The position numbers and the translations under genes are program-made. This document shows positions 959 through 20,007 of a stretch of 20,007 nt of DNA, one piece after another. How positions within the stretch are numbered: the stretch's first letter is position 1; each line of letters starts with the position of its first letter. Source of the stretch: a virus; IMG/VR virus record IMGVR_UViG_3300048908_000128, positions 1-20,007 of that record. One strand, given 5' to 3'. The notes under the pieces were generated by a model, which saw nothing but the letters and a program-made list of their open reading frames with translations, did not search any database and was not told where the DNA came from.

Positions 959-1290
959 GCGTGCGTTTCGTGCCACAGGTCGACGACGTGCGCCGGCATC
1001 CGGCCGCGGGCCGATTCGGTCATGTGCCCCTCGGCGATCGCCCATTCGCGAATCTCGCGACGCTGTATGGCCTCGGGTGTCGACGCCCGTCGACGGGATC
1101 TCGTCGACGACGGCCGTGCCGGCGAGATCCGCCGGGCGGCGTCGAGATACGGGGCGAGCGCATCGCGTAGCTGCTGCTCGTTGTCGGGTGCGAGATCGAT
1201 CGCGTATGCCGTGCCGTCGAGCGCGAAATCGACCTGTCGCGCGTCGGGGGTGCCGTCGATATCGTCAGTGCGAACCGTGATAGTTGCCAT
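955..1290 (-). CDS. lsr2: Lsr2-like nucleoid-associated protein (xenogeneic-silencer family)
   Basis: The N-terminus TVRTDDIDGTPDARQVDFALDGTAYAIDLAPDNEQQLRDALAPYLDAARR matches the Lsr2 dimerisation domain pattern. A basic linker follows. The C-terminus IREWAIAEGHMTESARGRMPAHVVDLW matches the Lsr2 RGR DNA-binding motif. Confidence 0.85.
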   Translation of the reverse strand: MATITVRTDDIDGTPDARQVDFALDGTAYAIDLAPDNEQQLRDALAPYLDAARRISPARPSSTRSRRRASTPEAIQRREIREWAIAEGHMTESARGRMPAHVVDLWHETHA

Positions 1291-2248: not shown

Positions 2249-2818
2249 TCATCGGAAACGGGGCGATATGGGACGCCCGTTACCGGCGATCGTAGCGTCG
2301 TCGCCGTAGGGCGACGTGATTTTCGCGCCTTTGATCCCGTTGTGCGTCTGGCACAGGGGTTGTAAATTCCGCATGTCGTCAGTGCCGCCCAGTGCGCGCG
2401 GGATCACGTGATCGATCTGTGTCGCGCGGGTCGTGATGCCCTCGCGCCGGCATTGCCAACAGTGCCGCCCGTGCGTGCGATATGCCTGTTCGCATATCCG
2501 CTTACGGTAATTGCCGACCCAACAGGGCAGCGTGTCTAGGTGCGGCCGCTTGCAGCGGCTACAGTTTGGGACGGACCCGCCCGCCACGGTTGACACGATT
2601 GGGACGCCTGTTATACGTGGCGGGCGGGGCTGCAGCGAGGATTTCGGGTCGCCTCGAGATCTCGGGATGCCGGCAGCAGACATGGCGGGGCGACGCTCGC
2701 GCTGTGCTCGAGCGTCGCCCCTGTCCCCATGTGCGCCGTGCCGTGCATCGGTATCGACCATAGCGCCGATATATCGAATCGCCGCATCCTTTGGAAACGA
2801 AACGATGCAATGATGCAA
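2249..2818 (-). CDS. HNH endonuclease. The start is uncertain, and the real start is probably internal (ATG 2683, or GTG 2596/2587).
   Basis: The C-terminal domain is CSRC...CWQCRREG...IDHVIPRALGGTDDMRNLQPLCQTHNGIKG (HNH with CxxC pairs). The longest ORF starts at a TTG. Its first roughly 45 codons cover a lower-GC stretch and a 13-bp perfect hairpin. Confidence 0.8.
   Translation of the reverse strand: MHHCIVSFPKDAAIRYIGAMVDTDARHGAHGDRGDARAQRERRPAMSAAGIPRSRGDPKSSLQPRPPRITGVPIVSTVAGGSVPNCSRCKRPHLDTLPCWVGNYRKRICEQAYRTHGRHCWQCRREGITTRATQIDHVIPRALGGTDDMRNLQPLCQTHNGIKGAKITSPYGDDATIAGNGRPISPRFR
2687..2721. other. 13-bp perfect GC-rich hairpin (2687-2699 with 2709-2721, 9-nt loop) immediately upstream of the ATG at 2683
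   Basis: GGGGCGACGCTCG and CGAGCGTCGCCCC are exact reverse complements. No U-tract follows. Confidence 0.5.
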
Positions 2819-2850: not shown

Positions 2851-3129
2851 TCACCACACGCCGGCATCGGCCAGCCGGTTACGGGCGGTGCGTTTCGCGG
2901 CCCGCGCGACGTCGTACTCGGCGAGCACGTCGTCGAGCCCGCTGCAGCCGGCGGCCGCGGCGATCGCGACGATCGCGGCGAATGCCGGCGCATCCGTGCG
3001 CCGGATCTCGTCGAGCACGTCGGCGATCAGGTCGGCGGCATCCTGCATGTCATGCTCGGCCTGATACTCGGCATCCTCGAGCCTGTTGATCTCGGCCTGC
3101 GTCAGTGGCTCGACGTCGTCGCCGGTCAT
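2851..3129 (-). CDS. Hypothetical acidic helical protein, 92 aa
   Basis: The ATG at 3129 forms an ATGA overlap with the stop of the upstream gene. The sequence MTGDDVEPLTQAEINRLEDAEYQAEHDMQDAADLIADVLDEI... looks like a real protein. Confidence 0.65.
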   Translation of the reverse strand: MTGDDVEPLTQAEINRLEDAEYQAEHDMQDAADLIADVLDEIRRTDAPAFAAIVAIAAAAGCSGLDDVLAEYDVARAAKRTARNRLADAGVW

Positions 3130-3569
3130 CCTAGGATCGCTTTGATCTCGCGTCGCGGCATGACGAGCGCGCCGTGCTCGCCGAGCGGCTGCAGGCCGAA
3201 TTCGTCGCGGTGCCGCCGGATCGCGTGCACACTGATGCCCAGCGCCTCGGCGGCGATCTCGAGCGGCACGAAACCGGGCAGCGTGTCGACGAGCTGCGAG
3301 ATCGGCGGCCGCTGCTGCAGCATGCCGCTCGACGAGCGTTCGACGGCCGTCGACGGGGTCGGCACGGGCCCGCGGGCCGGCTGATCGGGTCGTTCGTAAT
3401 CGGCCGGGATCAGCCATGCCCCGTCGAGCTTCATCGCCCCCGGGATGCCGTCGGCTAGCCAGCGTTTCAGCGTCCGGTCACTGATCGGCCGGCCGGCTCG
3501 CGATCGCAGGTCAAGAAATCCGGCGAACGTGACGAGCTGTGCAGGGGTGTCATTAGGTGTATCTGTCAT
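3126..3569 (-). CDS. DNA-binding protein with two tandem excisionase/MerR-like winged-HTH domains, 147 aa
   Basis: N-terminal domain: VTFAGFLDLRSRAGRPISDRTLKRWLADGIPGAMKLDGAWLIP. C-terminal domain: FVPLEIAAEALGISVHAIRRHRDEFGLQPLGEHGALVMPRREIKAI. Both fit the excisionase-type HTH pattern. The ATG start is embedded in the GTCAC-repeat array. Confidence 0.75.
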   Translation of the reverse strand: MTDTPNDTPAQLVTFAGFLDLRSRAGRPISDRTLKRWLADGIPGAMKLDGAWLIPADYERPDQPARGPVPTPSTAVERSSSGMLQQRPPISQLVDTLPGFVPLEIAAEALGISVHAIRRHRDEFGLQPLGEHGALVMPRREIKAILG

Positions 3570-3627
3570 GTGACAACCCTACGTCACGTGACGTCACACT
3601 GTCACCCGTCGTCACGTGCCATGTCAC
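3565..3627. promoter_or_regulatory. Array of seven GTCAC/GTGAC pentamers, including the 14-bp perfect palindrome ACGTCACGTGACGT (3581-3594) and GTGACGTCAC (3588-3597). This is a candidate operator or binding-site cluster.
   Basis: Read directly. It fills the whole 32-nt gap between the stop of 3602..3805 and the start of the wHTH gene, and extends into both genes. Confidence 0.55.
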
Positions 3628-3805
3628 CCGCGGTCGGGTCGGGGGTCGCTATCAGCATCCAGCCGTGTTCCCATAGCGGGCCGTCTGTGAGGATCACGAG
3701 CCCGGGCCCGTATAGACGCTGCAGCGCCCGCACGAGATCTCGCATGCCGGCGGCCGGCATCGGGTATCTCAGCTTTGCGACGACGCGGGCGGGGTCGGTA
3801 ATCAC
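3602..3805 (-). CDS. Hypothetical 67-aa protein (start uncertain)
   Basis: GTG start with reasonable GC3. TACGAT (complement of 3812-3817) lies 6 nt upstream, consistent with a leaderless promoter. Confidence 0.5.
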   Translation of the reverse strand: MITDPARVVAKLRYPMPAAGMRDLVRALQRLYGPGLVILTDGPLWEHGWMLIATPDPTAGDMARDDG

Positions 3806-3811
3806 CCTCGG

Positions 3812-3817
3812 ATCGTA
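3812..3817 (-). promoter_or_regulatory. Candidate -10 hexamer TACGAT (TANNNT) for a leaderless transcript starting at the GTG at 3805
   Basis: There are 6 nt between the hexamer and the start codon, and no separate SD. Confidence 0.25.
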
Positions 3818-4300
3818 ACGTCGGGCGCCGGCGGCCGCTTATGTATACCGTCCCGTTGTGCATGCCGGGTAGCGGAGGGAGGGCAGAGGGCCGCTCCCCC
3901 CCCACAGGGGAGGGAGTGCACGCCGGTATAGCATCGGTCGGTATATCGGTATAGCCCCGGCAGGGCGAGCCTGCCGACGTCGGGATATGTGAGCGGCAGC
4001 CCCCTGATTAAAGAGGTGATAGCGACATAGACGCCCGTGCGGGTCGCGCTTCCGTCACTCGGCCCCTGCCGGCCGGTCAGCAATGCCGGCTCGAGGGGAG
4101 GGTTATCTGATCGCCCTCTAACGGTCAGTCACCCGGCCCCCGGGGCTACCCGCCCTAATGGGCGGGATCGTGGCCGGGCTTGTGTGAGCCAGTGTGAGTT
4201 TTTGCGAGTTGTTCTCTCGGCGATCCGTCGGCGTGTCGTCGCTTTCATCGCTCGGCGTATGTCTGTCGGGTCTGTTACGCTTACCCCTAGGTTTTCGTGC

Positions 4301-4338
4301 TGAAATCCAACCTAGGGCGGCCAATCGGCCGCCCTAGG
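4301..4338 (-). terminator. Strong hairpin CCTAGGGCGGCC-AATC-GGCCGCCCTAGG (4311-4338). It is a candidate terminator ending the long minus-strand structural operon.
   Basis: 12-bp perfect stem with a 4-nt loop. On the minus strand it is followed by TTGGATTTCA, and on the plus strand by TGTTTCC. Confidence 0.55.
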
Positions 4339-4511
4339 TGTTTCCGGCGGCGTGTCGACGAATCCAGATCTCGACGAGCCGGGCCCGCGGAAATCGACGT
4401 CACAGGATGCCCTGTGCCGCACGAAACCGGGTCGGGTGATAGTAGGACCGCTAAACGCCGGGGGACAGCGTCTAGCGGCCGCACAGGGCCGCTCACAGTG
4501 TGGGGCCGTTT

Positions 4512-4649
4512 TCACAGCAGCCCCCGGGCCGTCAGCAGCAGCACGAGACACGTGCCGGCGATCACGGCCGCGGCGACCATACCGACGACCGATGCGAGCA
4601 CGTAGGGACGCGGGTCACGACGCGCCCAATCCGGCCGGCGCGTCATCAT
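4512..4649 (-). CDS. Small membrane protein, 45 aa, one TM helix (possible holin-like or membrane protein)
   Basis: MMTRRPDWARRDPRPYVLASVVGMVAAAVIAGTCLVLLLTARGLL has a basic N-terminus followed by a hydrophobic helix. ATGATGA overlap with the upstream stop. Confidence 0.55.
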   Translation of the reverse strand: MMTRRPDWARRDPRPYVLASVVGMVAAAVIAGTCLVLLLTARGLL

Positions 4650-4912
4650 TGCCGCCCGACCTGCAGCACTTCGCGCACGCCGGCGCCGGCGCCGTACTCG
4701 GCAGCACAGAATGCGCACGCGAGCACGTCATGCGTCGCGAGCAGCCTGTGCAGCTCGAGCTGCACCCGCCGGCAGCACGGCAGACACACGTCGACGGCCG
4801 TGCTGCAGCAGCGCGTCGAGATCCGCCGGCGGGCCGGCCGGCCGCAGCCGATGCACGCGACGACGTCGTCGACGGCCGCCGGCGATCGCTGCTCGAGAAT
4901 GGCTCTCATCAT
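4646..4912 (-). CDS. Cys-rich (three CxxC) putative zinc-binding protein, 88 aa
   Basis: Contains CIGC, CLPCC and CAFC motifs. ATGA overlap with the upstream gene. Confidence 0.6.
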   Translation of the reverse strand: MMRAILEQRSPAAVDDVVACIGCGRPARRRISTRCCSTAVDVCLPCCRRVQLELHRLLATHDVLACAFCAAEYGAGAGVREVLQVGRQ

Positions 4913-5513: not shown

Positions 5514-6314
5514 TTACCGATTCACGACGAGATCGACGAGCACGGCGAGATCGATTCCGCTGATCGCGACGAGCAGCGACACGCCCGCCAGCAGCCAGCG
5601 CGATAGGTCACGGGTCGGCGGGGTCGGCGGGCCCGGCTCGAGCGCGTCGACGTCGTCGCGGATTGCGTGCGATAGCGCGTTCGTCGACGCCATGAAACCG
5701 TCTGCAGAAAACCGGATCTGATTGCCGGCGTCATCCCGCTCGAGGGTGCCGTCGGCATTCTGCGCGGCGATCGGCTGCGCCCAGACAGCATGCCGGAAAA
5801 ACGGCCAGTCGTCATGCCCGGGCGGCGGCGACGTCGTATCCCGGTAGAACTCAAAAATTGAATCTTTGATGAACTGTCGATCATTGCCCGAGAGTGGCAC
5901 GTCATCCTCCAAAACATAGAGCGTAAAGTCGACGGTCGGCGTTACCCATGCGGGCCCGATCCATAATGTCGTGTGAACATGGGCGCCGGTTCCCCAATCG
6001 TTACCATTCGCCGACGCGCCCGATGCGGCGATTCCCTGCCCTTGACTGATTCGCTGCCCGACGCTTACCCACACGCTCGCCAAATGCAGATACCGGACCG
6101 TATTGCCGTCGTCGAGTGCGAGTGTCAGATATCGACCGGTCGCCGCGCCATTCGTTGTTTTCAGGTCGACGACGACGCCGGCGGCCGCGGCGAGGATCGT
6201 CGTGCCGTATCCGCATGCATAATCTGTGCCCGGCTCGGACGACGGCGGTTTACGATCCTTATGATCCTGCCATGACGACGAGATCGGCGCGTCGACGGGT
6301 GCAATATAGGGCAC
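5514..6314 (-). CDS. Endolysin, M23 (LytM-type) metallopeptidase with a C-terminal transmembrane helix
   Basis: GTDYACGYGTTILAAAAGVVV, VRYLHLAS and GAHVHTTLW match the HxxxD / HxH M23 signature region. The C-terminus LLAGVSLLVAISGIDLAVLVDLVV is hydrophobic. GTG start with AAGGGGTGAG upstream. Confidence 0.8.
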   Translation of the reverse strand: MPYIAPVDAPISSSWQDHKDRKPPSSEPGTDYACGYGTTILAAAAGVVVDLKTTNGAATGRYLTLALDDGNTVRYLHLASVWVSVGQRISQGQGIAASGASANGNDWGTGAHVHTTLWIGPAWVTPTVDFTLYVLEDDVPLSGNDRQFIKDSIFEFYRDTTSPPPGHDDWPFFRHAVWAQPIAAQNADGTLERDDAGNQIRFSADGFMASTNALSHAIRDDVDALEPGPPTPPTRDLSRWLLAGVSLLVAISGIDLAVLVDLVVNR

Positions 6315-7382: not shown

Positions 7383-9311
7383 CTATCCCTCCGTTGTAAC
7401 GCCGATGAGATCGGACCAGCTCACGTCCGAATCAAATTCGTTCCATGACCATGTGTTATCCAGATCGACCCACGGGACCGACCCGCCGAGCCCGAGCCCG
7501 GGTGACAGGGTGAGGGCGAGCGACCATGCGCCGGCGTTTGCGCCGTCGGTCACGGCGTGCCGGTATTCGTAATGCCCGCCCTCTATGTAGCCGACGAGCC
7601 CCGGCGGCAGGGGTGCCCAATTGGGGATATTGTCGATTCGCAGCGGGTGCCCGATCCGCACCGTGCCGTCGAGCAGATCCAGTGTCGTTTTCGTTTCGCC
7701 GGCGTCGACGACCGCCTCGAAACCCTGATCCCATTCGACGCCCGACAGTCGCCATGCACTATCGCCGACCCGGGCCAGCAGCCGGGCCGCGACGTCGGCC
7801 GCGTCAGATTCGGCCTGTAGCTGCGTCGACAACGAAATCCCGCGGGTGCCGTACTCGGCCTCGAGCTGCGCGTCGACGACGAGATAATGCCGCTCAGTCG
7901 GGGCCGGTTTGCCCTGATCGTCGACGGTCTGCTCGAGCCATGTGACGTCGGCACGGGTGCCGATATCGGCGACCGATTGCACCCATCGCAGCGGGGATAG
8001 CAGCACGTTCGCCGCGTCGAGCACGATCGCGTCGGCCGCGGTTGACGCCGGGATCACCTGCACGAGCCCCGTGTCGGGATCTTGATACAGCACGAATAGC
8101 GCCGAGCGGTTGTCGGGATCTTCGAGCCAGTAATAGGGCCCGTGGGTCGCGTGCACGGCCGGCCATGCGACGGCGGCCGCCGATGCGGCCAGCTCGGCGA
8201 CGAGCCCGGCCGCCGGCTGCGCGTCGACGTCGCGATAGGTAACCGGGATCGTGGCGATCGTCGGGTCGATAATCGCGGTGACGTCGCCGCCGGCGAGGGT
8301 CAGTATCCGGTTCACCCGGTCGGCGAGCGGTTCCACCTGCCAGGGCTGATCGCCGATGCGATCGTTCTGCAGGTCGGCCGGGAATCCGCGGGCGGTCACG
8401 TCGGCGACGAGCGTGCCGCCCTCGAGCCCGACGTCGTAATGCGCCTCGAGATCGGTGATCCGGCCGGCGAATGCGACGACCGTGCGCACGATCTCGCCCG
8501 ATGGGGCGGTTACGGCCACGTCGTCGACGTTGCCGCCCCGATAGTCGGCCCACGTGCCCGGGGTGCCCGCCCACGTGCCCGGGATCTGCTGCCATGCCGG
8601 CGCGGTGATCGCGACCCGCACCCCGACCCACCGATCCGACGTCGACGGGAACAATTGCCATGACACCGTCTGCCAGCCGCCCGTGCCGACGATGTGCTGC
8701 ACGGGCCCGTCAACCGACGACGCACCCGCCGGCGAGAAGAATGCGAGGGCCTGCAGCGTGCACACGGCCGACAACGGCGCCCACACGGCGACCGTGATTG
8801 GCCACGGCAGCCCGAGATCGGCGTCGGTATGGGGTATGTGATCCCACGCGGCCGGATTTTGCGTGTCGATCGCGGCCGGCGCGACGACGACGGCACCCTC
8901 GGCCGCGGTGTCGGTAATCGACAGGGCGAGAGACTGCGCGCCGGTCGACGCCCGCGCGGCCGTGACGGTCGCGGCCGCGTTCTGCGCGATCACGTTCGCC
9001 GGTTTCGAGCCGACCGCGGTCGCCTCGAAACCCCCGTCTGTGATCGTCGGCAGGCTCGGGTCGATATGTTCCATGCCGGCGGCCCGGATCTCGAGCGCCC
9101 GGCCGGCGGCGAGCTGCGCGATCAGGTCATGCCCGCCCCGCTGCGCGATCTGCAGCGACGCACTATCGGCGTCGGGCTGATCGACAACCGTCTGCCGCCC
9201 CCAGTCGATCCCGAGTCCCATCATGACGACCAGATCGCCGGCGTGAAAGCTCGTCGAGCTATCGGCGACGGGCACCCCGTCGACGAGCACCGTGACCGCG
9301 GCCGCACTCAC
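7383..9311 (-). CDS. Minor tail protein (Dit/Tal-position protein), 642 aa
   Basis: It lies immediately downstream of the tape measure, with a GTGA overlap. Large beta-rich protein. It contains the in-frame repeat PGTWAGT/PGTWADY. Confidence 0.65.
   Translation of the reverse strand: MSAAAVTVLVDGVPVADSSTSFHAGDLVVMMGLGIDWGRQTVVDQPDADSASLQIAQRGGHDLIAQLAAGRALEIRAAGMEHIDPSLPTITDGGFEATAVGSKPANVIAQNAAATVTAARASTGAQSLALSITDTAAEGAVVVAPAAIDTQNPAAWDHIPHTDADLGLPWPITVAVWAPLSAVCTLQALAFFSPAGASSVDGPVQHIVGTGGWQTVSWQLFPSTSDRWVGVRVAITAPAWQQIPGTWAGTPGTWADYRGGNVDDVAVTAPSGEIVRTVVAFAGRITDLEAHYDVGLEGGTLVADVTARGFPADLQNDRIGDQPWQVEPLADRVNRILTLAGGDVTAIIDPTIATIPVTYRDVDAQPAAGLVAELAASAAAVAWPAVHATHGPYYWLEDPDNRSALFVLYQDPDTGLVQVIPASTAADAIVLDAANVLLSPLRWVQSVADIGTRADVTWLEQTVDDQGKPAPTERHYLVVDAQLEAEYGTRGISLSTQLQAESDAADVAARLLARVGDSAWRLSGVEWDQGFEAVVDAGETKTTLDLLDGTVRIGHPLRIDNIPNWAPLPPGLVGYIEGGHYEYRHAVTDGANAGAWSLALTLSPGLGLGGSVPWVDLDNTWSWNEFDSDVSWSDLIGVTTEG
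8548..8583 (-). repeat. 15-bp exact direct repeat GCCCACGTGCCCGGG at 8548-8562 and 8569-8583 (21-nt period, in frame)
   Basis: Read directly. It encodes the 7-aa repeat PGTWAGT/PGTWADY in the minor tail protein. Confidence 0.8.
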
Positions 9312-11431
9312 GGGTAGCTCACCTGCCCGCCGAGAATCACGCCACGCTCACGCCGGGCGAGCCCCTGCAGCTCGGCCCGGATCGCGCGGGCGATCGCGTC
9401 GCCGCCCCCGAATGGCGCCTGCACCGTGATCTGAATAGGTGACGGCGCGGCGATCCTCGGCGCGGCCGCGCTGCGATACCCGGCGGCCGCATAGACGGCC
9501 GGCGACAGGGTGCCGGCGGCGAATGTCGACGACGTCGACGACACGGCGAACGTCGATTTTCCGCCCCCGGTCAGATCCGATAGCCATTTCGGCGGTTGCG
9601 GCCACTGAATTTTCGACAACCATTTGACGACGCCGGCGATCGCGTCGGCGATCGCGTTAAAGATAGGGGCGAGCATGCCGAGCGCCCCCGAAATCAATTT
9701 CGACGTGATCGTGAGCAGCCCGCCGAGCAGCGGGCCGGCGAGCTGCAGCAGCGGGGCGATCAGATTAAGAATCGGGCCGAGCAGCGCGGCGATAAGCGCG
9801 ATCAATTGTGCAATGGGCGGCAGAATGGGAATAACAGCCTTAATGATCTGCACAAATGCCGGGATTAGTGGCGTAATTGCCGTGACCAATAGATTTACGA
9901 TAATCTTCGCCAATTGCACGACAATGGGCAATAGTGGCTGAATGGCGCCAATGACCAATAGCACCACTGTCGCGAGGGGCGGCAGCAATTGGGTAATGAG
10001 ATCGGTAATTACGGGCAATAGCGGCATAAATGCGTCGACCAATTGCGTGACAATGGGCACGAGCATTGTTATTACGGTCGCGACGATCGGCAGCACGGCC
10101 TGCGCGAGCTGCGCGATCAGCGGCACGAGCGCCTGCAGCACTGTCGAGAGGGCGCCGGCGAAAACGGCGATCAGCGGGGCGGCCGCTTCGACGACGCTCG
10201 ACAGGGCGGTCGTGATCGCGCCGAGCGCGGTCGACAGCACGGGCAGCAGCGGGGCGAGCGCTTTCAGCGCCTGTTGCATGACGCCGCCGAAAACAGCCTG
10301 CAGCTCGGGCGACGTCGCGACGAGCCCGGCGATCGCGGCGATCACGATGCCGATCGGCCCGGACAGCCCGCCCAGCAGCTCGCCGATCAGCGGGATACCT
10401 TTAAGCGCGCCTGTCGACATGGCAGCGAACGCGCCGGTGATCGTCGCGAGGGCCGGCGCGAGATTGGAGATCCCCGCGGTGAGCTGATCGACGTTCACCC
10501 CTTTGAGCTTGCCGAGCACGGCGTCGAGAATGCCGCCGATCCCGCCGAGCCCGCCGGCGAACGCGCCCGTAAATTTCGACACGAGCCCGGATATCAACGG
10601 CTCGAGGGTGCGCAGGATATCGGCGATCTGATTCGCCCACGTGACAGCCATGCCCCCGCCGGATTTCGACACAAATGGCTCGGCGAGGGCCGACCCGATA
10701 TCCCGCATCGCCCCTTTGATCCGGTCGGTCGCGCCGGCCCATGTCTGTTTGACGTTGTCGGCGGCGTGCGCGAATCGTGTTTCCATGCCGGCGGCCAGCG
10801 CGTCGAGCGCCGTGCCGGCATCCAGCGATCCCTTACTGATCGCATCTTTGATCTGCGCGCCGGTCATGCCCATCTGCGAGCCGATCAGCGACGCCGCATC
10901 GATCCCGCGCTGCGCGAATTGCATGAGATCCTGACCGGTGATTTTCCCGGCCGCCGAGATCTGCGACATGATGAGCGAAATCTCTTTGATCTGCTGCGCC
11001 GACCCGCCGGTCGCCGCGACGGCATCCTGAATCGCGCCGAGATACGGGATCACTTTGCTCGACGCGATCCCGAATCCGAGCATCTGCTGCGTCGCTTCGA
11101 TAAACGCCTGTTTCGGAAACGGCGATTTCTTGCTAAACGCGGTGATCTGATCCATCATTGCCGCGGCCGCATCCGCCGACCCGAGAATCGTTTTAAACGC
11201 GGCCGTGGCGGTCTGATTCAATTGGTTGTATGCGACGCCTGATTTAAACACGCTCGCGACGAATATGCCGCCGGCGGTCGCGGCCGCGGTCCATTTCGTT
11301 GCGATCCCGGTCATGACGGCGTTCGCGCCGGCGCCGAATTTGCCGAGCGCGCTATCGGACGACCCTAGTGCTTTCGCGAGATCCGAATTATTCCCGAGAA
11401 TGTTGACGACGAGATTCGCCGGCCTGCCCAT
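9308..11431 (-). CDS. Tape measure protein, 707 aa
   Basis: Long Ala/Gly/Leu/Ile-rich helical protein with repetitive hydrophobic PL(L/I)P segments, placed directly after the chaperone frameshift pair. Confidence 0.9.
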   Translation of the reverse strand: MGRPANLVVNILGNNSDLAKALGSSDSALGKFGAGANAVMTGIATKWTAAATAGGIFVASVFKSGVAYNQLNQTATAAFKTILGSADAAAAMMDQITAFSKKSPFPKQAFIEATQQMLGFGIASSKVIPYLGAIQDAVAATGGSAQQIKEISLIMSQISAAGKITGQDLMQFAQRGIDAASLIGSQMGMTGAQIKDAISKGSLDAGTALDALAAGMETRFAHAADNVKQTWAGATDRIKGAMRDIGSALAEPFVSKSGGGMAVTWANQIADILRTLEPLISGLVSKFTGAFAGGLGGIGGILDAVLGKLKGVNVDQLTAGISNLAPALATITGAFAAMSTGALKGIPLIGELLGGLSGPIGIVIAAIAGLVATSPELQAVFGGVMQQALKALAPLLPVLSTALGAITTALSSVVEAAAPLIAVFAGALSTVLQALVPLIAQLAQAVLPIVATVITMLVPIVTQLVDAFMPLLPVITDLITQLLPPLATVVLLVIGAIQPLLPIVVQLAKIIVNLLVTAITPLIPAFVQIIKAVIPILPPIAQLIALIAALLGPILNLIAPLLQLAGPLLGGLLTITSKLISGALGMLAPIFNAIADAIAGVVKWLSKIQWPQPPKWLSDLTGGGKSTFAVSSTSSTFAAGTLSPAVYAAAGYRSAAAPRIAAPSPIQITVQAPFGGGDAIARAIRAELQGLARRERGVILGGQVSYP

Positions 11432-11435
11432 ATGG

Positions 11436-12058
11436 TCACCCCCCCTCGGCTGTATGTGTGCGATCGATCGCCGTCATCATTGCCTGCAGCCGATCCAGCG
11501 GCAGGTTTTCGATCACGTCGACGGTTACGTGATAGGCGAGCCCGATAACGGCGAGATCGGCGAGCCGGTCGCGGTGTGCGTCGGCGAGGGCCCGCCGGCG
11601 CCAATCACTTTTGGGCGGCGTCGGGCCAGCTCGAGCACGAGCGTCGCGAGATCGTCGAATGGGATCGCGAATGCCTGATCGATCGACAACGGGTGATCGC
11701 CGTGCAGCCGGGACGCCCAGACCATAAACACGAGCTGGCCGGCCTGCGTGCGGGTCAGCTCGTCGAGGGTGATGCCGGCGGACAGCTCGAATTGCATGAT
11801 CTGCCGGCTCGTCAGCGCTGCGCGCAGCTCGTCGGCCAGCGTGTCGACGTCGACCGGGTCGACGACGTCGTCGCCCGGCTCGTCGGGGGTGACAGCGTCA
11901 CGTGACGGGACGCTGTCACGGGACGCTGTCACGTTCTCGGGTGCCGTCACGGGCCATGTCACGTCGTCGAGCCCGGGCAGCGGGTCGCCGTAGCCGGCCG
12001 GCTCGTCGACGACGTCGTCGTCGGGCCCGGTCACGTCAGGGGTGATGAATGTGTTCAT
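11436..12058 (-). CDS. Tail assembly chaperone -1 frameshift product (GT-like), about 207 aa. The frame shifts at 11609-11615.
   Basis: After the slip the -1 frame reads SDWRRRALADAHRDRLADLAVIGLAYHVTVDVIENLPLDRLQAMMTAIDRTHTAEGG and stops at TGA 11436-11438, 4 nt before the tape-measure ATG. Confidence 0.65.
11525..12058 (-). CDS. Tail assembly chaperone (G-like, zero-frame product), 177 aa, with an acidic low-complexity N-terminal half
   Basis: Located between the tail genes and the tape measure. The ATG at 12058 forms an ATGA overlap. It contains the slippery heptamer CCCAAAA. Confidence 0.7.
   Translation of the reverse strand: MNTFITPDVTGPDDDVVDEPAGYGDPLPGLDDVTWPVTAPENVTASRDSVPSRDAVTPDEPGDDVVDPVDVDTLADELRAALTSRQIMQFELSAGITLDELTRTQAGQLVFMVWASRLHGDHPLSIDQAFAIPFDDLATLVLELARRRPKVIGAGGPSPTHTATGSPISPLSGSPIT
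11609..11615 (-). promoter_or_regulatory. Programmed -1 ribosomal frameshift slippery heptamer C_CCA_AAA
   Basis: The minus strand reads cgC CCA AAA Gtg in the chaperone zero frame, a perfect X_XXY_YYZ pattern. Confidence 0.65.
11889..11965. repeat. Nucleotide-level repeat cluster inside the chaperone gene. It comprises the inverted copy GTGACAGCGTC (11889-11899), the palindrome CGTCACGTGACG (11896-11907), an exact 13-nt tandem repeat GGGACGCTGTCAC x2 (11907-11932) and further GTCAC pentamers.
   Basis: Read directly. The 13-nt period is not a multiple of 3, so the two copies are translated in different frames (VTASRDSVPSRDAVT). Confidence 0.8.
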
Positions 12059-12489
12059 TTCGTTGCCGGCGTCGCCGCCCCAATCCGATCGATGATTTTC
12101 TGCAGGTCGTCGACGTAGAACTCGAGCCATATCTGCTCGGATCGCTGCGCGGCGTCGACGATGAAAAACGACCCGCGAAACGACCCGCCCCGCCACCCTT
12201 TGCGGGGATTGGGGCGGCCCGGCCAGCCGTAATGGTTATTGCCGGCGTAGGGCACGGCCGCGCTGCCGGCCCGCACGACCGCCCGACCTACCTGCCGCGT
12301 GCCGCGCACGGTGCCCTGCAGGTTCCCCGTGTCGCCGACCGGGGCGAGCCCCCGGGCGACGTCGGCGACGAATGCCGACACGCGCGCGTTTGCCGTTCTC
12401 AGGTCGGCCGTGTCGAGCTGCGCGGCTGAGAGTGCTGATCTCAGCTCGCGCAGCCCGACCACGTAGTAGCCGGCGTTCTGTGTCGACAT
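12055..12489 (-). CDS. HK97 gp10-family head-tail/neck protein, 144 aa
   Basis: ARGLAPVGDTGNLQGTVRGT...VRAGSAAVPYAGNNHYGWP fits the gp10-family pattern (P..TG.L..S...YA...E/H.G). Confidence 0.65.
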   Translation of the reverse strand: MSTQNAGYYVVGLRELRSALSAAQLDTADLRTANARVSAFVADVARGLAPVGDTGNLQGTVRGTRQVGRAVVRAGSAAVPYAGNNHYGWPGRPNPRKGWRGGSFRGSFFIVDAAQRSEQIWLEFYVDDLQKIIDRIGAATPATK

Positions 12490-12508
12490 GGTCGCGCGCG
12501 GCCCGGGG

Positions 12509-13000
12509 TTATTCGCCAGTCGCCCCGGATTTGCTCGGCGCGGCGGCCGCGGCCAGCGGTGCCGCCCCCCAGGTGCCGAAATCCGGTTCGGATGCGCCGG
12601 CCGGGCCGCGCACGCTCCAGTCGAAATCGCGCGTGATCCGCACTTTGACGTCGCCGCCGAGCCCGAGAAACTTGACGTAGACTTCGCCGGTGATCGTCGG
12701 CGCGGTCGTGTTGTCGTTCGGGGTGAACGTGAATTCCTGCCACGTGCCCCGGTTCGTATAGGACCATTCCTGCAGCGACGGGGATGCGTCGAAATCCTGA
12801 ATCGCGGTGCCGGTCATGTGCCACGGGCCCGGGGTCGTTTCGCCGCCGATCGTGTCACCTGACAGCACGTAGGCCTGATCCTCGGAATCGCCGTCCTGTT
12901 GCTCGACGATCAGGTTTGTCGTCTGCGCCTCGGCCGACGTCGGCGTCAGCGTCGGGCCAAACGTCAGCGTGCCCCTCAGCAGTCTCGAATCGTTAACCAT
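12509..13000 (-). CDS. Putative major tail protein, 163 aa
   Basis: Assigned by position upstream of the chaperone and tape measure. Beta-rich sequence, strong SD (GAGAGGGG) and a disordered Ala-rich C-terminus. No specific motif was recognised. Confidence 0.5.
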   Translation of the reverse strand: MVNDSRLLRGTLTFGPTLTPTSAEAQTTNLIVEQQDGDSEDQAYVLSGDTIGGETTPGPWHMTGTAIQDFDASPSLQEWSYTNRGTWQEFTFTPNDNTTAPTITGEVYVKFLGLGGDVKVRITRDFDWSVRGPAGASEPDFGTWGAAPLAAAAAPSKSGATGE

Positions 13001-13014
13001 TGTTTCCGCCCCTC

Positions 13015-13371
13015 TCAGACGGTCGTAAGTGTGTACGTGATCGCGGGCAGCGTTTGATCGCCGCCCGCCTCGGGAATGAACGACGACGGTTCGTATCGGG
13101 TCACGGCAGCGATCTCGTCAAGGGCTGCCGTGATCTCTTCGATCAGCTCGTCGGCGGCGATCGCGACCGACTCGGGGGTGCCGGCCGGCAGCACGACATG
13201 CACGAGCCACGTCGCCTGATCGCCCTGATAGGTCGACGGTTCGGAATATGACCATTCCGGCCACCCCATGCCCCGCGCGATCGTGCGGGGCGGGTAGGGG
13301 GTGCCGGTCACGCCGGCGACACTCGAGAGTGCGGCCGCGATCTCGACGCGGGTATCTGTGAGCCGGGTCAC
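13015..13371 (-). CDS. Head-tail connector component (tail-terminator / DUF3168-like), 118 aa
   Basis: The GTG at 13371 forms a GTGA overlap with the upstream stop. Size and position are typical of this role. Confidence 0.45.
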   Translation of the reverse strand: MTRLTDTRVEIAAALSSVAGVTGTPYPPRTIARGMGWPEWSYSEPSTYQGDQATWLVHVVLPAGTPESVAIAADELIEEITAALDEIAAVTRYEPSSFIPEAGGDQTLPAITYTLTTV

Positions 13372-13712
13372 CCGAGCACCATGATCCGGTAGGGCCGTTC
13401 GTATCGTTCGATCTCGGCGTCCCATCGCGGCAGCGTCGCGCTGCCGAAATCGTTACCGACGACGACGCCGAGCGGGGCGCCGGTCGCGGCGGCCGCACGG
13501 CCGACGCGCCGGTAGATCGCGAATGTGAGATCGGCCGCCCACGGGTCGACCCGGCACGCCTGCGCCTGCGCGGTCAGCTCGGCCTGCAGCAGCAGCTCGA
13601 GCTGATCGTCGTCGACGCTCGACGCCGGGAGCTGCAGCCATGCCCGAACCATGCCGGCATCCGGCGGTGCGTCGACGCCGGCGACCGCCGGGTCGACCGT
13701 GGGGTCGGTCAT
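13368..13712 (-). CDS. Head-tail adaptor (gp6-like connector), 114 aa
   Basis: It lies immediately after the capsid gene. VRAWLQLPASSVDDDQLELLLQAELTAQAQ fits the gp6-like adaptor pattern. Confidence 0.65.
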   Translation of the reverse strand: MTDPTVDPAVAGVDAPPDAGMVRAWLQLPASSVDDDQLELLLQAELTAQAQACRVDPWAADLTFAIYRRVGRAAAATGAPLGVVVGNDFGSATLPRWDAEIERYERPYRIMVLG

Positions 13713-13713
13713 C

Positions 13714-14979
13714 TCACTTACTCGACTTGACGGCGTCGCGGGCCGCGGCGACGAGATCCTCGGCGCCGGCGACCGGGGCGGGCAGGGCGAGCACGCTGAA
13801 CGTGTCGGGTGCCGTGTTCAGGGTCGCCTCGAAACCGGCGTAGCCGACGAGCTGGCCGAGCACGTCGGGCTCGTCGACGGCGAGAAAACCGTCGAGATCT
13901 TCGTAATACTCGACGAGCGCCCCGCGGCCGATGATGCCCGTTCCCGGCGGGAAATACGGATCGACAACGGCCTTGAAACCGCCGATCGTGCCGCCGATCA
14001 CGCCGGGCTCGAGCCCGGGCCAGCTCGGCACCCCGTTGGAGCTGAGCTGCCCGCCGAGCTCGGCCCACACGTCGACCGACAGCCAGAACGTGTCCGGGAA
14101 TCCGAGCGGCTTGCCGGCCTGCAGCGGGGTCGCGGCCGCGTCGAACAGCACTTTGCGCACCGTGGCCGGGTTCCAATCGGCGACGGGTACGCTCGCGTTG
14201 TTCGTCAGCGACGCGAGAAACGCCGTCACGGCATCTTCGTCGGATTCCTGCGCGTAGATATTCGCGAAATCCTCGGCGACGATCTGCATGATCCCGGGCT
14301 GCGACCACTTGATATCCTGCCGGGAAATGTTCAGGTGCCCGGCGAGGGTCGTCGCGGCCACGGGCAGCTTGCCGAGCAGCAATTTCTGCGACGCGGTGAG
14401 ATCCTTCTCCTGCGCCTGTTTGCCGACGGCGACATGCTGGGTGACGACGGGCCGGTCGAATGCCATCGCCGTCAGCGGCCGGCGGGCGACCGACTGCACG
14501 AATGGCCGGTTTGCGTCGATCAGGTTGATGACCGGCTGCACGATCGGGCGGGGGATGATGCCGGGGTTGTCGGCGGTCGTCTGATGCGCGGTCGCGCGTT
14601 CGATCAGCTCGAGCGCTTCCCGGTCGCCGCGCATGGCACGGCCGGCGGCGACGAGATAGTGCCCGACGGTCGGGAATGCCTCGCGCATGATCGCGTCGGG
14701 GTCGGCCGGCCGGTCGGCGACGACGACCCGCTCGACACGGGTCGGCTGTCCGCCGAAACGCGATCGCAGTGTCGCGACGCGGCCGCGCTGCTCTTCGATG
14801 CCGGCGTGATATTCGATCGACGCCTGCAGCTCGGCGGCGTGCGTGTTGTCGCGTTCGATCAGCGCGTTTTCGTCGGCGGTCAGATCGCGGTTTTCCGCGG
14901 CCGCACGCTCGAGCACGGCGTCGACGCCGTCGATCAGTTCGTCGTATTCCGACGTGAGACGGTCAAGATAAACGCCCAT
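13714..14979 (-). CDS. Major capsid protein, HK97 fold, with an N-terminal coiled-coil (delta/scaffold-like) segment, 421 aa
   Basis: It follows the prohead protease. ATG with GGGAGGG SD. The helical N-terminus of about 100 aa is followed by a body typical of HK97-family capsid proteins. Confidence 0.85.
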   Translation of the reverse strand: MGVYLDRLTSEYDELIDGVDAVLERAAAENRDLTADENALIERDNTHAAELQASIEYHAGIEEQRGRVATLRSRFGGQPTRVERVVVADRPADPDAIMREAFPTVGHYLVAAGRAMRGDREALELIERATAHQTTADNPGIIPRPIVQPVINLIDANRPFVQSVARRPLTAMAFDRPVVTQHVAVGKQAQEKDLTASQKLLLGKLPVAATTLAGHLNISRQDIKWSQPGIMQIVAEDFANIYAQESDEDAVTAFLASLTNNASVPVADWNPATVRKVLFDAAATPLQAGKPLGFPDTFWLSVDVWAELGGQLSSNGVPSWPGLEPGVIGGTIGGFKAVVDPYFPPGTGIIGRGALVEYYEDLDGFLAVDEPDVLGQLVGYAGFEATLNTAPDTFSVLALPAPVAGAEDLVAAARDAVKSSK

Positions 14980-15111: not shown

Positions 15112-15684
15112 TTAGCGTGCTGTGCGCAGCGCGTCTAGTCTCGCCCGGGCGGCATCCAGCAGCGGGGTTGCCGGCGGGGTAAGCATTTCGTGATCGCGGG
15201 CGACGAGCACGCCGGCGCCGGCGTATTGCGGCGACCGGGTCGCGGCGACGTGATTCAGGCCGGCCTGCATCCTGATCGTGACGTCGCGGCCGCCCCGTGT
15301 TTCCCGGCGCGACTTGTATGCGCGGGCGCCGACCGACCAACCGGTCAGCTCGCCCGAGCGTGCTTCTTCGGCTTGTGGGTGCGACCGGTTCAACCGGAAT
15401 GCCGGATACAGGCCGTCGTCGAATTCCTCGAGCGCGACGCATCGGCCGAGATACCGGTCGCCGTCGTCGCCGGCGTGCCCGAGCATGAGATTAATCCACA
15501 AGCCCCCTTTGGACACGTCGCGGGCGAACGCGCCCCGCTCGAATTCCTCGAAATAGAACGTTTCGCCGTCGTCGCTGACGGCCGTTTCGACGCCGTAGGG
15601 CACGGCGAGCCCGCGCACGGTCCAACCGTCGCCGATCGGCTCGAGCGGCACGGGTAGGGCACGGGTGATAAACAGCTCAGACAT
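15112..15684 (-). CDS. Prohead maturation protease, HK97 (S78) family, 190 aa
   Basis: Contains LMLGHAGD (His), GWSVGA (Ser) and LAVPYGV... elements and lies between the portal and capsid genes. The ATG at 15684 with a GGAG SD is preferred over the TTG at 15699. Confidence 0.8.
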   Translation of the reverse strand: MSELFITRALPVPLEPIGDGWTVRGLAVPYGVETAVSDDGETFYFEEFERGAFARDVSKGGLWINLMLGHAGDDGDRYLGRCVALEEFDDGLYPAFRLNRSHPQAEEARSGELTGWSVGARAYKSRRETRGGRDVTIRMQAGLNHVAATRSPQYAGAGVLVARDHEMLTPPATPLLDAARARLDALRTAR

Positions 15685-16963
15685 TCGCGGTCGCTCCAAT
15701 CGCCTGCAGGTTGGTCTGTGTGATGATCTGCTGTGCCGCGGCGACGACGTCGTCGGCGGTCTGATCGGTTGTCTCGGGCCGGCGTGCGGTCTGCGCCGGC
15801 GTCGGCAGCGGCGGATACCCGAGCTTTGCCCGGATCTCGTCGACCGTGAACACGCCCGCGCCGGCGTACCCGGTCAGGATCTCCATCGTCGATTTCGCGT
15901 CGGCCCGCATCCTCGAGTCGTAATCCCAGACGACCGACGTGCCGCCCGGCATAAGCCATTTCGTCATCGCCTCAGTGAGCGGCCGCATCCAGCGGTCGGC
16001 ACTGTCGCGCACGAAATCGATATCGCCCGTTTCGACGTTCTGATATGTCATCGTCGGGCCGTCGAGACCCAATTTCCACGGCGGCACGCCCACGGCGTTC
16101 GCCGTCATGTGCGCGTTCCATTTGCGCGCGTCGACGAGCTGCGCCTGTTCCGCGTTGCCCACGATCGGCAGCAGCGTCGTACCCGACGGCAGCACGACCG
16201 GCTCGCGGGTGAGCACGATATCCCGCCATTTCTGTTTCAGCTCGTCGGCCTGTTCCTGTTTCACGACGCCGCCGGCGGCGATCACGGCCGGCGGCAGCGC
16301 GCCGGCGGCGAACGTGTCGCGGCTGTACGATTCGGCGGCGAGATCGCCGGCGAGCGAATCGGCGTACTGCTGCAGCACCCCACGCCCGAGTAGCTGCCCC
16401 GATCGGGCGCCGAATGACACGTGAAACACTTCATCGGGGCTGAGAGTGATCCCGCCGATCACCCATGCATACGTCCCGTCGGGGTCGACCTGCAGCCACA
16501 CCTGATCGACGGGCAGCGGCACGAGCCAGCCGGGCCGGCCCGTGCGCCAGTCCAGATCCCCCTTTAGGGCAACATGGTTGCCGTAGAGTATCCCGTCCTC
16601 GGCGGCCGCCCAGCGATACCCCCACAGCGTCGACAACGGGTCAGGGTCGGTCACGATCGACGGCTGATCGGGCAGCGGAATCGCGATCCCGAGATCCCGG
16701 TCGAACCGGCGCGCATACCATTCCGTCGACGCGGCCGCATTCGCCAGCAGCGCGACCGCCCGCCCGAATGGCGGGTAGCCGAGCGCGTCGGATTCCGTCG
16801 CCGGCTGCACGGTCGGAATCAGCGGCGGGTCGGTCGTCGTCAGCGTCAGCAACGCCTGCCGGGTGAGCCGGCCCGGCAGCGCCGGCCGGGCGAGCTGCTG
16901 CAGGGCGGCCGACCCGCGCAGCCGGTTACGGGCATAGGACAGTGCTACATCGCGACTCGCCAC
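15677..16963 (-). CDS. Portal protein, 428 aa
   Basis: Size and position directly after TerL. GTG start preceded by GAGG. Confidence 0.8.
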   Translation of the reverse strand: MASRDVALSYARNRLRGSAALQQLARPALPGRLTRQALLTLTTTDPPLIPTVQPATESDALGYPPFGRAVALLANAAASTEWYARRFDRDLGIAIPLPDQPSIVTDPDPLSTLWGYRWAAAEDGILYGNHVALKGDLDWRTGRPGWLVPLPVDQVWLQVDPDGTYAWVIGGITLSPDEVFHVSFGARSGQLLGRGVLQQYADSLAGDLAAESYSRDTFAAGALPPAVIAAGGVVKQEQADELKQKWRDIVLTREPVVLPSGTTLLPIVGNAEQAQLVDARKWNAHMTANAVGVPPWKLGLDGPTMTYQNVETGDIDFVRDSADRWMRPLTEAMTKWLMPGGTSVVWDYDSRMRADAKSTMEILTGYAGAGVFTVDEIRAKLGYPPLPTPAQTARRPETTDQTADDVVAAAQQIITQTNLQAIGATANV

Positions 16964-16977
16964 GGGGACGCCTCATC

Positions 16978-18558
16978 TCAGAACACATAGAAATGGCTAG
17001 GTTCCGGCGCGCGTCCCAGCGCCCATGCCGACAGGGTAGCGCTCATCACCCCGGTTGCGGGAATAGGCCCGCGTCGTTCCCACTGCCAACTTTTGCCGGT
17101 CGTGCGTTGCACGCCGGCGACGCTGCGTGTCAGGGTCGCGTGATGATCGGACGCCCGCACCCGCAGCCCGCCGGCGCGTAACCGGGCATCCCACGCGAAA
17201 CACGCGGCGGCGAGATCCTGCGCGCCGATGCGCACGAGCTTGCCGGCGACGTCGGGATCGGCCTCGAGCTGCAGGATCAGATCGTGCCCGGGCCCGTAAT
17301 CGTCTATGCCGATCGCGACGACGCCGGCGGCGAGATCCCGCACCCGCTGCGCGACCCACGCCGAGCCGGGCCGGTCGTCGATCGTTTCCTGCAGCAGCCC
17401 GTCACGGCCCGGGTCGCCGGTTGTCGCGGTGATCGTCGACACGCGATCGTAAGGGTCGATATCGACGCCGATCGCCGCCGGCGACTCGGCCGGCAGCTCG
17501 ACGTCGTCGACGTCGACGGCCGCGGCATCCCAGCTCGCCCGGGCGATCGTCGACCATAGCGGCATCGTTTGCCCGCTGCCGGGCCACTTCCCGAAATACT
17601 CGGCGGCGAATGATTCGTCGCCGAGCCGGTCACGGTCGGCGCGTAATTCTTCGATGCGGATAATGCCGTCGGCGAGGGCCGGGTAGTAATCCCACCATGA
17701 CGATTCGTCGTCGAGATCGAACGTGTCGGGCACCGTGAACTCGAAATAGGCTGTGCCGGTCGTCGCGCCGGCGTCGACGGTCGCGCGGCCGCGTTCCATC
17801 ATTTCCCATAGCGCCGTCTGTTCGTTGTTCAGGATCGACACGTTCGACACGCGCCATATCTGCCCGTGCCCGCGCGCGTCGCCGAGCGTCGGGCCGGCGG
17901 CCGCCATGAGATCCTGACCGACCGTGCGCGTGAACACAAGAAATTCGTCGAATGTCAGGTGCATGATCCCGTCACCCCGCACGCTCGAGCGGGTCGGCGC
18001 GAAAACGCTGATCGACGACGCGCGCGGCCAGCGCCAGTCTTTGCCGGCCGTGCGCGGGTCGATCAGCAGCCCGGTATCGCCGATCGATTCGCGCAGCTTC
18101 ACCCCGGCCCGCCACACGGCCGGGGACATGCTTTCCCGGTACGGTTCGACGAGATCTTTCATGAACCGCTGCCGCGCTTTGACGAGATTCTGCGCGGTGT
18201 GCGCGCCGACGAATGGCATGATGCGGCCCGTGTCGAGCGTCACGGGCCCGGCGAGCGACCGGGCCAGCGGCACGCCCATTGTCGTCACACTTTTGCCGCA
18301 GCGCCGGCCGACGATCGCGTCGATATTCGCGTAGGCGAATGGCGAGCCGGGCCCGTCGACCCGCTCGAGGGCGACGTCGAGCATGTATTGCTGCCAGCGG
18401 GTCGGGATGCGGCCGAGCTTTGCCGCGATCGCCGCCCCATAGAGTCGGCCGTCACTGTACCTGTGCGGGCTGCGTTTCGTCCGGTATTGCGGCAGGATCG
18501 GCTGCCCGCTCGAGCTGTGCGAGATACTGCCCGATGCGTGCCAGCTCGAATTCGACAA
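16978..18558 (-). CDS. terL: Terminase large subunit, 526 aa (TTG start, overlapping the upstream gene by 107 nt)
   Basis: Walker A-like GRRCGKS, Walker B-like LTFDEFLVF and C-terminal nuclease-type acidic motifs (IGVDIDP, IGIDDYG). The only canonical start upstream of the conserved RWQQYMLD segment is the TTG at 18558. Confidence 0.9.
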   Translation of the reverse strand: MSNSSWHASGSISHSSSGQPILPQYRTKRSPHRYSDGRLYGAAIAAKLGRIPTRWQQYMLDVALERVDGPGSPFAYANIDAIVGRRCGKSVTTMGVPLARSLAGPVTLDTGRIMPFVGAHTAQNLVKARQRFMKDLVEPYRESMSPAVWRAGVKLRESIGDTGLLIDPRTAGKDWRWPRASSISVFAPTRSSVRGDGIMHLTFDEFLVFTRTVGQDLMAAAGPTLGDARGHGQIWRVSNVSILNNEQTALWEMMERGRATVDAGATTGTAYFEFTVPDTFDLDDESSWWDYYPALADGIIRIEELRADRDRLGDESFAAEYFGKWPGSGQTMPLWSTIARASWDAAAVDVDDVELPAESPAAIGVDIDPYDRVSTITATTGDPGRDGLLQETIDDRPGSAWVAQRVRDLAAGVVAIGIDDYGPGHDLILQLEADPDVAGKLVRIGAQDLAAACFAWDARLRAGGLRVRASDHHATLTRSVAGVQRTTGKSWQWERRGPIPATGVMSATLSAWALGRAPEPSHFYVF

Positions 18559-19984: not shown

Positions 19985-20007
19985 CTGATCGGGTAAAAAC
20001 GGGCCCG
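19985..20007. repeat. Terminal direct repeat, copy 2 (identical to 1-23)
   Basis: Exact 23-nt identity with the window start. Confidence 0.9.

Follow-up and report, generated by a model that had tools for sequence, protein, structure and literature searches.

A putative operator-like palindromic array in the tail assembly chaperone gene of a 20-kb actinophage

The DNA analysed here is the 20,007-nt stretch of the virus record IMGVR_UViG_3300048908_000128 from IMG/VR, referred to as the window. Its gene G, which encodes a tail assembly chaperone, carries a cluster of short palindromes at 11889-11962 that we call array B. To judge from its alignment, array B is the third copy of a composite element of ~60-65 bp, whose other two copies, arrays A and C, bracket the regulatory operon of the phage. 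In our judgement the chances are about even that array B is an operator-like protein-binding array written into a tolerant coding spacer. A cis element in a coding linker is of a known kind; the location in a tail chaperone gene and the three-copy architecture are new.

Architecture of the array in gene G

The 13-nt unit GGGACGCTGTCAC occurs in exact tandem at 11907-11919 and 11920-11932 (Tandem Repeats Finder: period 13, 2.2 copies, 100% match). An inverted copy, GTGACAGCGTC, occupies 11889-11899 and extends to 12/13 matches across the whole 13-nt unit. Together with the perfect 12-nt palindrome CGTCACGTGACG, these features had been reported in a first-pass annotation of the window, and all their coordinates were confirmed. 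They are parts of one 44-nt imperfect palindrome with the left arm GTGACAGCGTCACGTGAC, the spacer GGGACGCT and the right arm GTCACGGGACGCTGTCAC. The 13-mer tandem arises because the spacer and the start of the right arm repeat part of the arm. Six (G)TSAC half-sites at 13-nt spacing lie within 11889-11932, and two further GTCAC half-sites are located past the palindrome at 11946 and 11958.

The first-pass annotation took the peptides SRDSVP and SRDAVT for the two tandem copies read in different frames. They correspond instead to copy 2 and to the inverted arm, which share a reading frame and lie 18 nt from each other; the tandem copies translate as V-T-A-S-(R) and (R)-D-S-V-P. Its broader statement that the signal resides in the DNA and not in the protein is borne out by the codons that spell the motif. 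These are rare in the phage: ACA (14% of Thr), CGT, used twice (9% of Arg), GCT (2% of Ala) and TCA (7% of Ser). Array B dictates codon choice and amino acids (VT, SRD) over ~25 codons of G. Contigs assembled from two further samples have the same sequence here, so the array is not an assembly artefact.

The pattern exceeds what the coding sequence would produce by chance. Keeping the protein sequence of G unchanged, we drew synonymous codons at random according to the codon usage of the phage (2000 resamples). The observed count is 8 GTSAC pentamers, compared to a mean of 4.9 and a maximum of 7 in the resampled sequences (P<0.0005). None of the 2000 resamples contained the tandem, and 2/2000 contained the 12-mer palindrome. 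When the residues were shuffled too, the mean fell to 1.3 pentamers and the maximum to 5. The possibility that D/V/T-rich codon content alone reproduces such repeats, which the first-pass annotation had allowed for, therefore fails, given the resampling and the rare codons at the motif.

Three copies of a composite element

Aligned over ~65 nt, the three arrays share an invariant core, GTCAnGTGAC-N8-GTCACGnGACG, which is followed by GTCACGKGC. Arrays A and B have GTCACGKGCCATGTCAC in common (16/17), and the order of their modules is collinear. Among all local matches of array A in the genome, B and C are the best, with scores of 36 and 34 over a background of 15.7 +/- 3.2. The spacer positions of B differ by 30-40% from those of array A. 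The 13-nt period of array B equals the start-to-start spacing of half-sites in A and C (5 + N8), so that codon phase is ignored.

The motif counts point in the same direction. CGTCACGTGACG is present in three exact copies, at 737, 3582 and 11896, where 0.28 are expected even allowing one mismatch (0/100 shuffles). The layout GTCACGTGAC-N8-GTCAC occurs five times exactly and three times with one mismatch, against an expectation of 0.01, and is confined to the three arrays. Clusters of the GTSAC pentamer are found in the genome only at 665-760, 3529-3627 and 11889-11962. GTCA-NN-TGAC occurs seven times and TGACGTCA four times, nearly all within the arrays; the sole class member outside them is an isolated GTCACCTGAC (GTCA-NN-TGAC) at 12854-12863 in the major tail protein gene. 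Of the roles considered in the first-pass annotation, a third site of the palindrome family appears to fit best, given the ~65-nt alignment and the layout common to the arrays.

Array C is located between the convergent gene ends of 312-668(+) and 764-958(-), at the 3' end of the regulatory operon. Its hairpin, with perfect 30-nt arms (663-692/707-736) and a 14-nt loop, is probably a bidirectional terminator. The surrounding 131-nt region folds to -99.5 kcal/mol (z = -9.7), with GTGACGTCAC palindromes alongside.

Two simpler origins of the repeat were considered and rejected. An isolated slippage duplication does not describe it: the unit is part of a family with three loci, it repeats at the half-site spacing of that family, and it makes up one arm and the loop of the 44-nt palindrome. 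For a MITE-like insertion (miniature inverted-repeat transposable element), we find only a loose TCGGG on both sides of the 44-nt palindrome, which is unconvincing as a target-site duplication.

The host gene and its N-terminal extension

Gene G has its place between the gene of the major tail protein and that of the tape measure, in a synteny as in gp8-gp12 of phage Naby. Its own ATG overlaps the upstream stop (ATGA), and its GC content at third codon positions is 0.87. The -1 frame entered at the slippery heptamer stays open for 57 more codons, down to a stop at 11436-11438, five bases short of the tape-measure ATG (11431). The same C.CCA.AAA heptamer is present in the related locus L003. 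Position and frameshift signal together identify gene G as a G/GT tail assembly chaperone. Its product has no match in Pfam or PHROG and does not fall into a described chaperone family. A link to the frameshift, such as the pause site ahead of it put forward in the first-pass annotation, is not supported; the frameshift site lies ~280 nt downstream of the array.

In the AlphaFold2 model, residues 71-147 of G form a compact helical domain (predicted local distance difference test, pLDDT, 86-92). Residues 1-70 are without secondary structure at a pLDDT of ~50 and are acidic, with 18 D/E and 2 K/R. The N-terminal extension is thus predicted to be a tolerant, acidic and disordered host segment, in agreement with the description of the surrounding sequence as acidic and tolerant in the first-pass annotation.

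A candidate binding protein and related palindromes in Cluster EE phages

Array A overlaps the start codon of a gene for a protein with two helix-turn-helix (HTH) modules. This double-HTH protein is probably the binder of the palindrome, as the position of array A and the comparison below suggest. With gp22 of Microbacterium Cluster EE phages it shares 35-39% identity. Its match to HTH_17 stays under the Pfam cut-off (23.8 vs 27 bits), and a PDB sequence search with the HTH family returned no relative. Among IMG/VR sequences no relative of the protein was confirmed; the protein database holds one, P0010, on a 2-kb contig.

Five phages with a homologue of the double-HTH gene were compared: the window, L049, Naby, TomBrady12 and Efeko. 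In 5/5, half-sites with a TGAC core are enriched at the start of the HTH gene (-90..+10; P 0.06 to 4e-6). The motif clusters at the regulator's own gene start, which is what an operator array of the double-HTH protein should show. Xis/MerR-type winged-helix (HTH_17) proteins act on multi-site operators. The arrays of the window resemble these in their short half-sites of mixed orientation, in a spacing of ~1.2 turns and in adjoining an HTH_17-type gene. They differ in that the window protein matches the family only below the cut-off and is without PDB relative.

PMC7302621 describes for Cluster EE a small-genome architecture that has Lsr2, HNH and multiple HTH regulators but neither integrase nor repressor, and the gene content of the window agrees with it. 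Passages in and around the Cluster EE section of that paper make no mention of the motif GACATGTC, which we find 4-8 times per genome, against 0.15 expected, in the Cluster EE phages Naby (L011), TomBrady12 (L050) and Efeko (L051). It marks conserved junctions, namely terS|terL, terL|portal and chaperone|tape-measure, the position ahead of the lysin gene and the region preceding gp22. Two of the copies extend over a start codon (that of terminase and that of endolysin), and the copy between the chaperone and tape-measure genes is followed by a GC-rich hairpin.

Both phage types share a small genome, a homologous double-HTH gene, Lsr2 and HNH, and in both a short palindrome without a loop forms a cluster where the HTH gene begins and is found again in the late operon, beside the chaperone and tape-measure genes. 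In contrast to GACATGTC in Cluster EE, the palindrome of the window is GTCACGTGAC. The Cluster EE sites all lie at junctions or in gaps and are kept across EE genera, whereas the site of the window is intragenic and not shared with relatives. The window phage has no intergenic gap at the chaperone/tape-measure position. Given the EE junction sites, it is a feature of this phage type to carry a regulator-type palindrome close to the chaperone gene in the late operon.

How the array would act

As an operator-like array, the element would present two 10-bp palindromes of the form GTCA-NN-TGAC, N8 apart, followed by more GTCAC half-sites, as a duplex-DNA target. Palindromes of 10-12 bp without a loop are the form expected for a dimer that binds duplex DNA, which supports the binding-array reading. 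The tandem Xis/MerR-like HTH protein, or another palindrome-specific protein, would bind the half-sites spaced by 13 bp cooperatively. The third copy would be housed in the N-terminal extension of G, which is disordered and acidic and is the sole tolerant sequence close by. A nucleoprotein complex could form there, inside the late operon and between its major-tail and tape-measure genes. Such a complex may be a roadblock or attenuator, or a looping partner of A and C, and would time or scale the expression of the distal tail genes.

Lineage specificity and the possibility of a neutral copy

A word-indexed protein search with G returned one homologue, and an exhaustive HMMER search of 1.8 billion representative sequences returned five. 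Six G homologues were compared, namely P0002-P0006 and the orthologue in L005; L003 is the DNA locus of P0002, and the contigs of P0003 and P0006 are too short to reach the regulatory regions. The homologues align with G from about residue 55 on, or carry a different spacer, and the linker of G varies in the family from 7 to about 70 residues. L003, at 70% nucleotide identity, is without ~148 nt at array B. L005, whose tape measure is 76% identical, shares the first ~100 nt of gene G, after which divergence is complete. In a sliding comparison the window is L005-like (75-82%) down to ~11965 and L003-like (71-82%) from ~11852. The stretch 11875-11979 is unique to the window, and identity falls to 0-24% across 11905-11979.

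Several points weigh against a regulatory role at this position. The segment of array B is missing from 6/6 G homologues, which in part bears out the reservation of the first-pass annotation that the repeat might not be conserved; since the homologues are without the segment, array B is a lineage-specific acquisition and not a conserved feature. As the switch in similarity shows, it sits at a mosaic joint. Because it is lineage-specific, selection at its position is unproven, and the three copies of the phage are uninformative because they are ~100% identical overall. The HTH motifs of the window and P0010 are near-identical, yet their arrays differ in the base flanking TGAC. Finally, a neutral ectopic copy of array A would look identical.

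The strongest alternative is such a neutral by-product, which we consider unlikely. A copy of the operator region (A or C) would have entered, where recombination made a joint, a disordered linker that is hypervariable, and slippage or quasipalindrome correction would have reshaped it. It would be kept only for leaving the reading frame intact, without being selected for a function there, with incidental binding possible. Besides the absence of the segment from all homologues and its position exactly at the L005-like/L003-like switch, it is favored by the variable linker length, by the collinear module order of A and B, and by the two 13-nt copies being 100% identical, which suggests a recent event. 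A related palindrome also marks the edges of an inserted small-gene module in L005. What speaks against a neutral copy is the pattern of divergence: 8/8 GTSAC pentamers in residues 1-75 are intact, seven of them in the array, while the spacers differ by 30-40% from A, and the rare codons are retained. The array is also unchanged in three independent samples, though the genomes are near-identical overall.

Hairpin formation in the transcript

The second alternative places the function in the RNA. A 17-bp hairpin in the mRNA would pause or attenuate transcription, be processed, or protect the upstream head and major-tail message, with lower chaperone, tape-measure and distal-tail expression as the expected result. 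We hold this to be unlikely too, and rank it behind the neutral copy. The RNA hairpin of the first-pass annotation does exist, but with another pairing: the best structure pairs 11889-11906 with 11915-11932 (17 pairs, 8-nt loop), not 11889-11899 with 11909-11919. Its mRNA-sense fold reaches -31.3 kcal/mol (z = -6.8, 0/200 shuffles, ensemble frequency 0.84), and the DNA fold -23.1 kcal/mol (z = -7.3). Among the 52-nt windows of this genome of 67% GC, however, its strength puts it only near the first percentile. An intrinsic terminator was rejected, as the hairpin is followed by CCCCCGACGAG with no U-tract and the terminator scan gave no match.

Other hairpins in comparable places bear on this alternative. 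The G orthologue of L005 contains its own hairpin at the same spacer position (L005:8476-8527, CCGGCGCCGGCGCCGG...CCGCCGGCGCCGGCGG), which at -36.0 kcal/mol is stronger than that of the window and unrelated to it. It encodes PAPAP...PPAPA and is an automatic by-product of Pro-Ala codons, because CCGGCG is self-complementary. A second strong coding hairpin of the window, at ~12415-12455 (-), reaches -39.8 kcal/mol (52-nt window) and is the second strongest in the genome. It falls in the opening 25 codons of the gp10-like gene, shortly past the major tail gene, and may be an attenuator. The hairpin at the same spot in L005 and the one that follows the major tail gene speak for an RNA-level role, as does the GC-rich hairpin beside the Cluster EE palindromes in the chaperone|tape-measure gap. 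A purely structural role leaves unexplained the identity with A and C, the no-loop form of the palindrome and the half-sites outside the stem; those at 11946 and 11958 are outside the hairpin, yet they are part of the 16/17 match to array A.

The same 12-mer in replication initiator genes

A scan of IMG/VR for CGTCACGTGACG-N(0-30)-CGTCACGTG returned 37 loci (L012-L048) with obvious arrays. They lie inside or ~150 nt upstream of annotated replication initiation genes, and 7/10 open reading frames (ORFs) that span an array are so annotated. Initiators, primosomal proteins and DnaB-like helicases are the commonest neighbours. Intragenic arrays are read as SRD or RHVT repeats, which are the only two stop-free frames, and the 'PSRDAVT' of L019 is identical to the 'PSRDAVT' of G. 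Identical 12-mer arrays in the coding linkers of other phages indicate that this dual coding is tolerated. The CGTCACGTGACG/CGTCAC arrays (e.g. L037:3640-3740, L044:2088-2135) come from diverse phages with a GC content of 42-75%. Arrays at initiators often adjoin CTT/GAA-rich repeats and within genes read (S-R-D-x)n or RHVT.

These loci raise the third alternative, a replication origin or replisome-loading site formed by an iteron cluster in coding sequence. In phage lambda the origin iterons lie inside the initiator gene O. Array B resembles this arrangement as a repeated, putatively protein-binding array in the linker-coding part of a gene, and the identical 12-mer is found in PHROG-annotated initiator genes of L019, L020, L024, L028, L029, L037 and L044. 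It differs in that the host gene in the window is a tail chaperone gene and two further copies are intergenic. A lambda-O-type origin does not fit array B, which is neither in nor next to an initiator gene and is flanked by GC-rich coding sequence.

Searches for a protein that could link the window to these loci were negative. With phmmer and hmmsearch, no homologue of the initiators was found among all six-frame ORFs of the window. When the HTH family and p299, a 299-residue protein of the regulatory operon, were compared with the initiators by hhalign, the probabilities were 0.1-0.2%. A BLASTP comparison for a common protein beside the 37 arrays clustered only one clade. In a tblastn search with 17 window proteins against the IMG/VR loci, only p299 was found, in L040, 4 kb from the array. 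An origin at array B is therefore very unlikely in our view, as the phage is without a detectable homologue of those initiators, carries three arrays and not one, and has no AT-rich unwinding region flanking B. Array A, which adjoins a ~1-kb non-coding region, would be the better candidate.

Promoter and stoperator comparisons

An internal promoter had also been considered in the first-pass annotation. One of the sigma-70 type that serves the tail genes further downstream and uses GTGACA as -35-like hexamers is hardly credible: GTGACA resembles TTGACA, and in array A one GTGACA stands 18 nt upstream of the -10-like TAGGGT, 6 nt before the HTH ATG, but a consensus scan of 11300-12600 found neither a sigma-70-like promoter nor a -10 element at array B, and no GTGACA in array B is followed by TANNNT. 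Consensus scans for promoters and terminators at array A were negative.

The stoperators of Cluster A mycobacteriophages (L5 gp71 sites) are repressor-type sites within transcribed operons, for which a block of elongation has been proposed. They consist of an asymmetric 13-14-bp motif containing TGTCA, number ~20-36 per genome, and are mostly intergenic and orientation-biased. Array B is similar in having a 13-bp unit and sites outside a promoter region within a transcribed operon. In contrast to stoperators, the window has three palindromic composite arrays, one of them intragenic. We rejected membership in the L5 stoperators; the 10/13 likeness to their consensus is a lead only. No PHROG or Pfam match to a repressor or integrase was obtained among the scanned genes, gp71 not having been compared directly.

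Implications

If array B is functional, it would represent a clear case of dual coding in a virion-assembly gene, in which a DNA signal sets the 13-nt period, the codons and the residues. It would then suggest that compact phages without intergenic space place regulatory sites in disordered linkers. If it is not functional, it documents the copying of regulatory DNA into a tolerant coding linker at a mosaic joint, which is relevant to how phage linkers and extensions arise. The finding links the GACATGTC junction palindromes of Cluster EE, the double-HTH family and the CGTCACGTGACG SRD arrays in initiator genes. Among the 15 best-ranked of 151 literature matches for the motif GTCACGTGAC, none describes it in phages; all 15 are unrelated, most of them papers on eukaryotic E-box/CLEAR.

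A more far-reaching picture is that a ~20-kb phage without recognisable replication or repressor genes is organised by three copies of a ~60-bp element. The intragenic copy would be a roadblock, a looping anchor or even a replisome-loading site like those carried, with the identical 12-mer, by initiator genes elsewhere, and the disordered extension of G mainly the carrier of a DNA signal. We regard this picture as distinctly improbable.

Genome context and further observations

The contig has 23 identical nucleotides at each end (CTGATCGGGTAAAAACGGGCCCG; 1-23 = 19985-20007), and for this reason we take it as a circularly assembled complete phage genome of ~19,984 bp; the source is a complete ~20-kb circularly assembled actinophage. 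A hairpin, GGCCCGTTTTT/AAAAACGGGCC, spans the circular junction of the contig. The interval 11-12 kb has a GC content of 65%. The minus strand holds nearly all genes (Table 1). No DNA-level match to 9300-13500 was found by megablast among 50,697 phage records, and transfer RNA and Rfam scans of the whole window returned nothing.

Table 1. Features of the window, grouped by array and by gene order
Feature	Position	Strand	Remark
44-nt imperfect palindrome	11889-11932		arms 11889-11906/11915-11932, 17/18 complementary, one mismatch, 8-nt spacer
12-nt perfect palindrome CGTCACGTGACG	11896-11907		in G read (P)-S-R-D-(A)
Second palindrome GTCACGGGAC	11915-11924		one mismatch; 18 nt from first, as in arrays A and C
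GTCACGGGCCATGTCAC module	11946-11962	+	16/17 identical to array A 3611-3627
Array A	3565-3627		overlaps start codon (3569) of double-HTH gene; GTCATGTGAC-N8-GTCACGTGAC-N18-GTCACGTGCCATGTCAC
Array C	663-764		palindromes 720-764; hairpin + GTCAGGTGAC-N8-GTCACGTGAC-N8-GTCACGTGC
Tail assembly chaperone G, 177 aa	11525-12058	-	array covers residues 33-57
Slippery heptamer C.CCA.AAA, in phase	11615-11609	-	-1 frameshift to GT, 207 aa
Double-HTH protein, 147 aa, candidate binder	3126-3569	-	two Xis/MerR-like HTH_17 modules
Large terminase	16978-18558	-	
Portal	15677-16963	-	
Protease-like protein	15112-15699	-	
Capsid	13714-14979	-	
Major tail protein	12509-13000	-	phrog_4574, 4e-20
gp10-like protein, 144 aa	12055-12489	-	
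Tape measure	9308-11431	-	phrog_58, 2e-25
Minor tail protein genes		-	
M23 peptidase	5514-6314	-	
HNH	2249-2818	-	regulatory operon
p299, 299 aa	1330-2229	-	regulatory operon; phrog_5931, function unknown; DGQHR motif
Lsr2	955-1290	-	regulatory operon
64-aa ORF	764-958	-	last of regulatory operon
118-aa gene	312-668	+	N-terminal LYHFTCEH; sole clear plus-strand gene

The gene of p299 lies between those of HNH and Lsr2, and its homologue occurs in L040. The protein carries LIDGQHRL, which we take to be ParB/Srx-like, with no Pfam or PDB match to back it; a PDB sequence search with p299 returned nothing.

For the plus-strand gene 312-668 no family match was found. In the window and in L005 it is flanked by the phage's own palindrome. 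L005, the closest relative, carries a ~1.46-kb insertion of small genes between its protease and capsid genes (L005:3840-5300), which includes a 44% homologue of the gene. The insert holds three copies of the palindrome CGTCATGACG, on or close to the ATGA-type stop/start junctions of its genes; the CGTCATGACG 10-mer is found a fourth time in the tape measure gene of L005.

Between the lysis-side small genes and the HTH operon lies ~1 kb of poor coding potential (3630-4650). It contains GGTATA three times (3926-3955), CCTAGG three times (4286-4340) and a G/C-rich quasi-palindrome at 3870-3915, and may be the seat of a cos site, an origin or promoters. A comparable gap, of ~640 nt, is present in Cluster EE phages.

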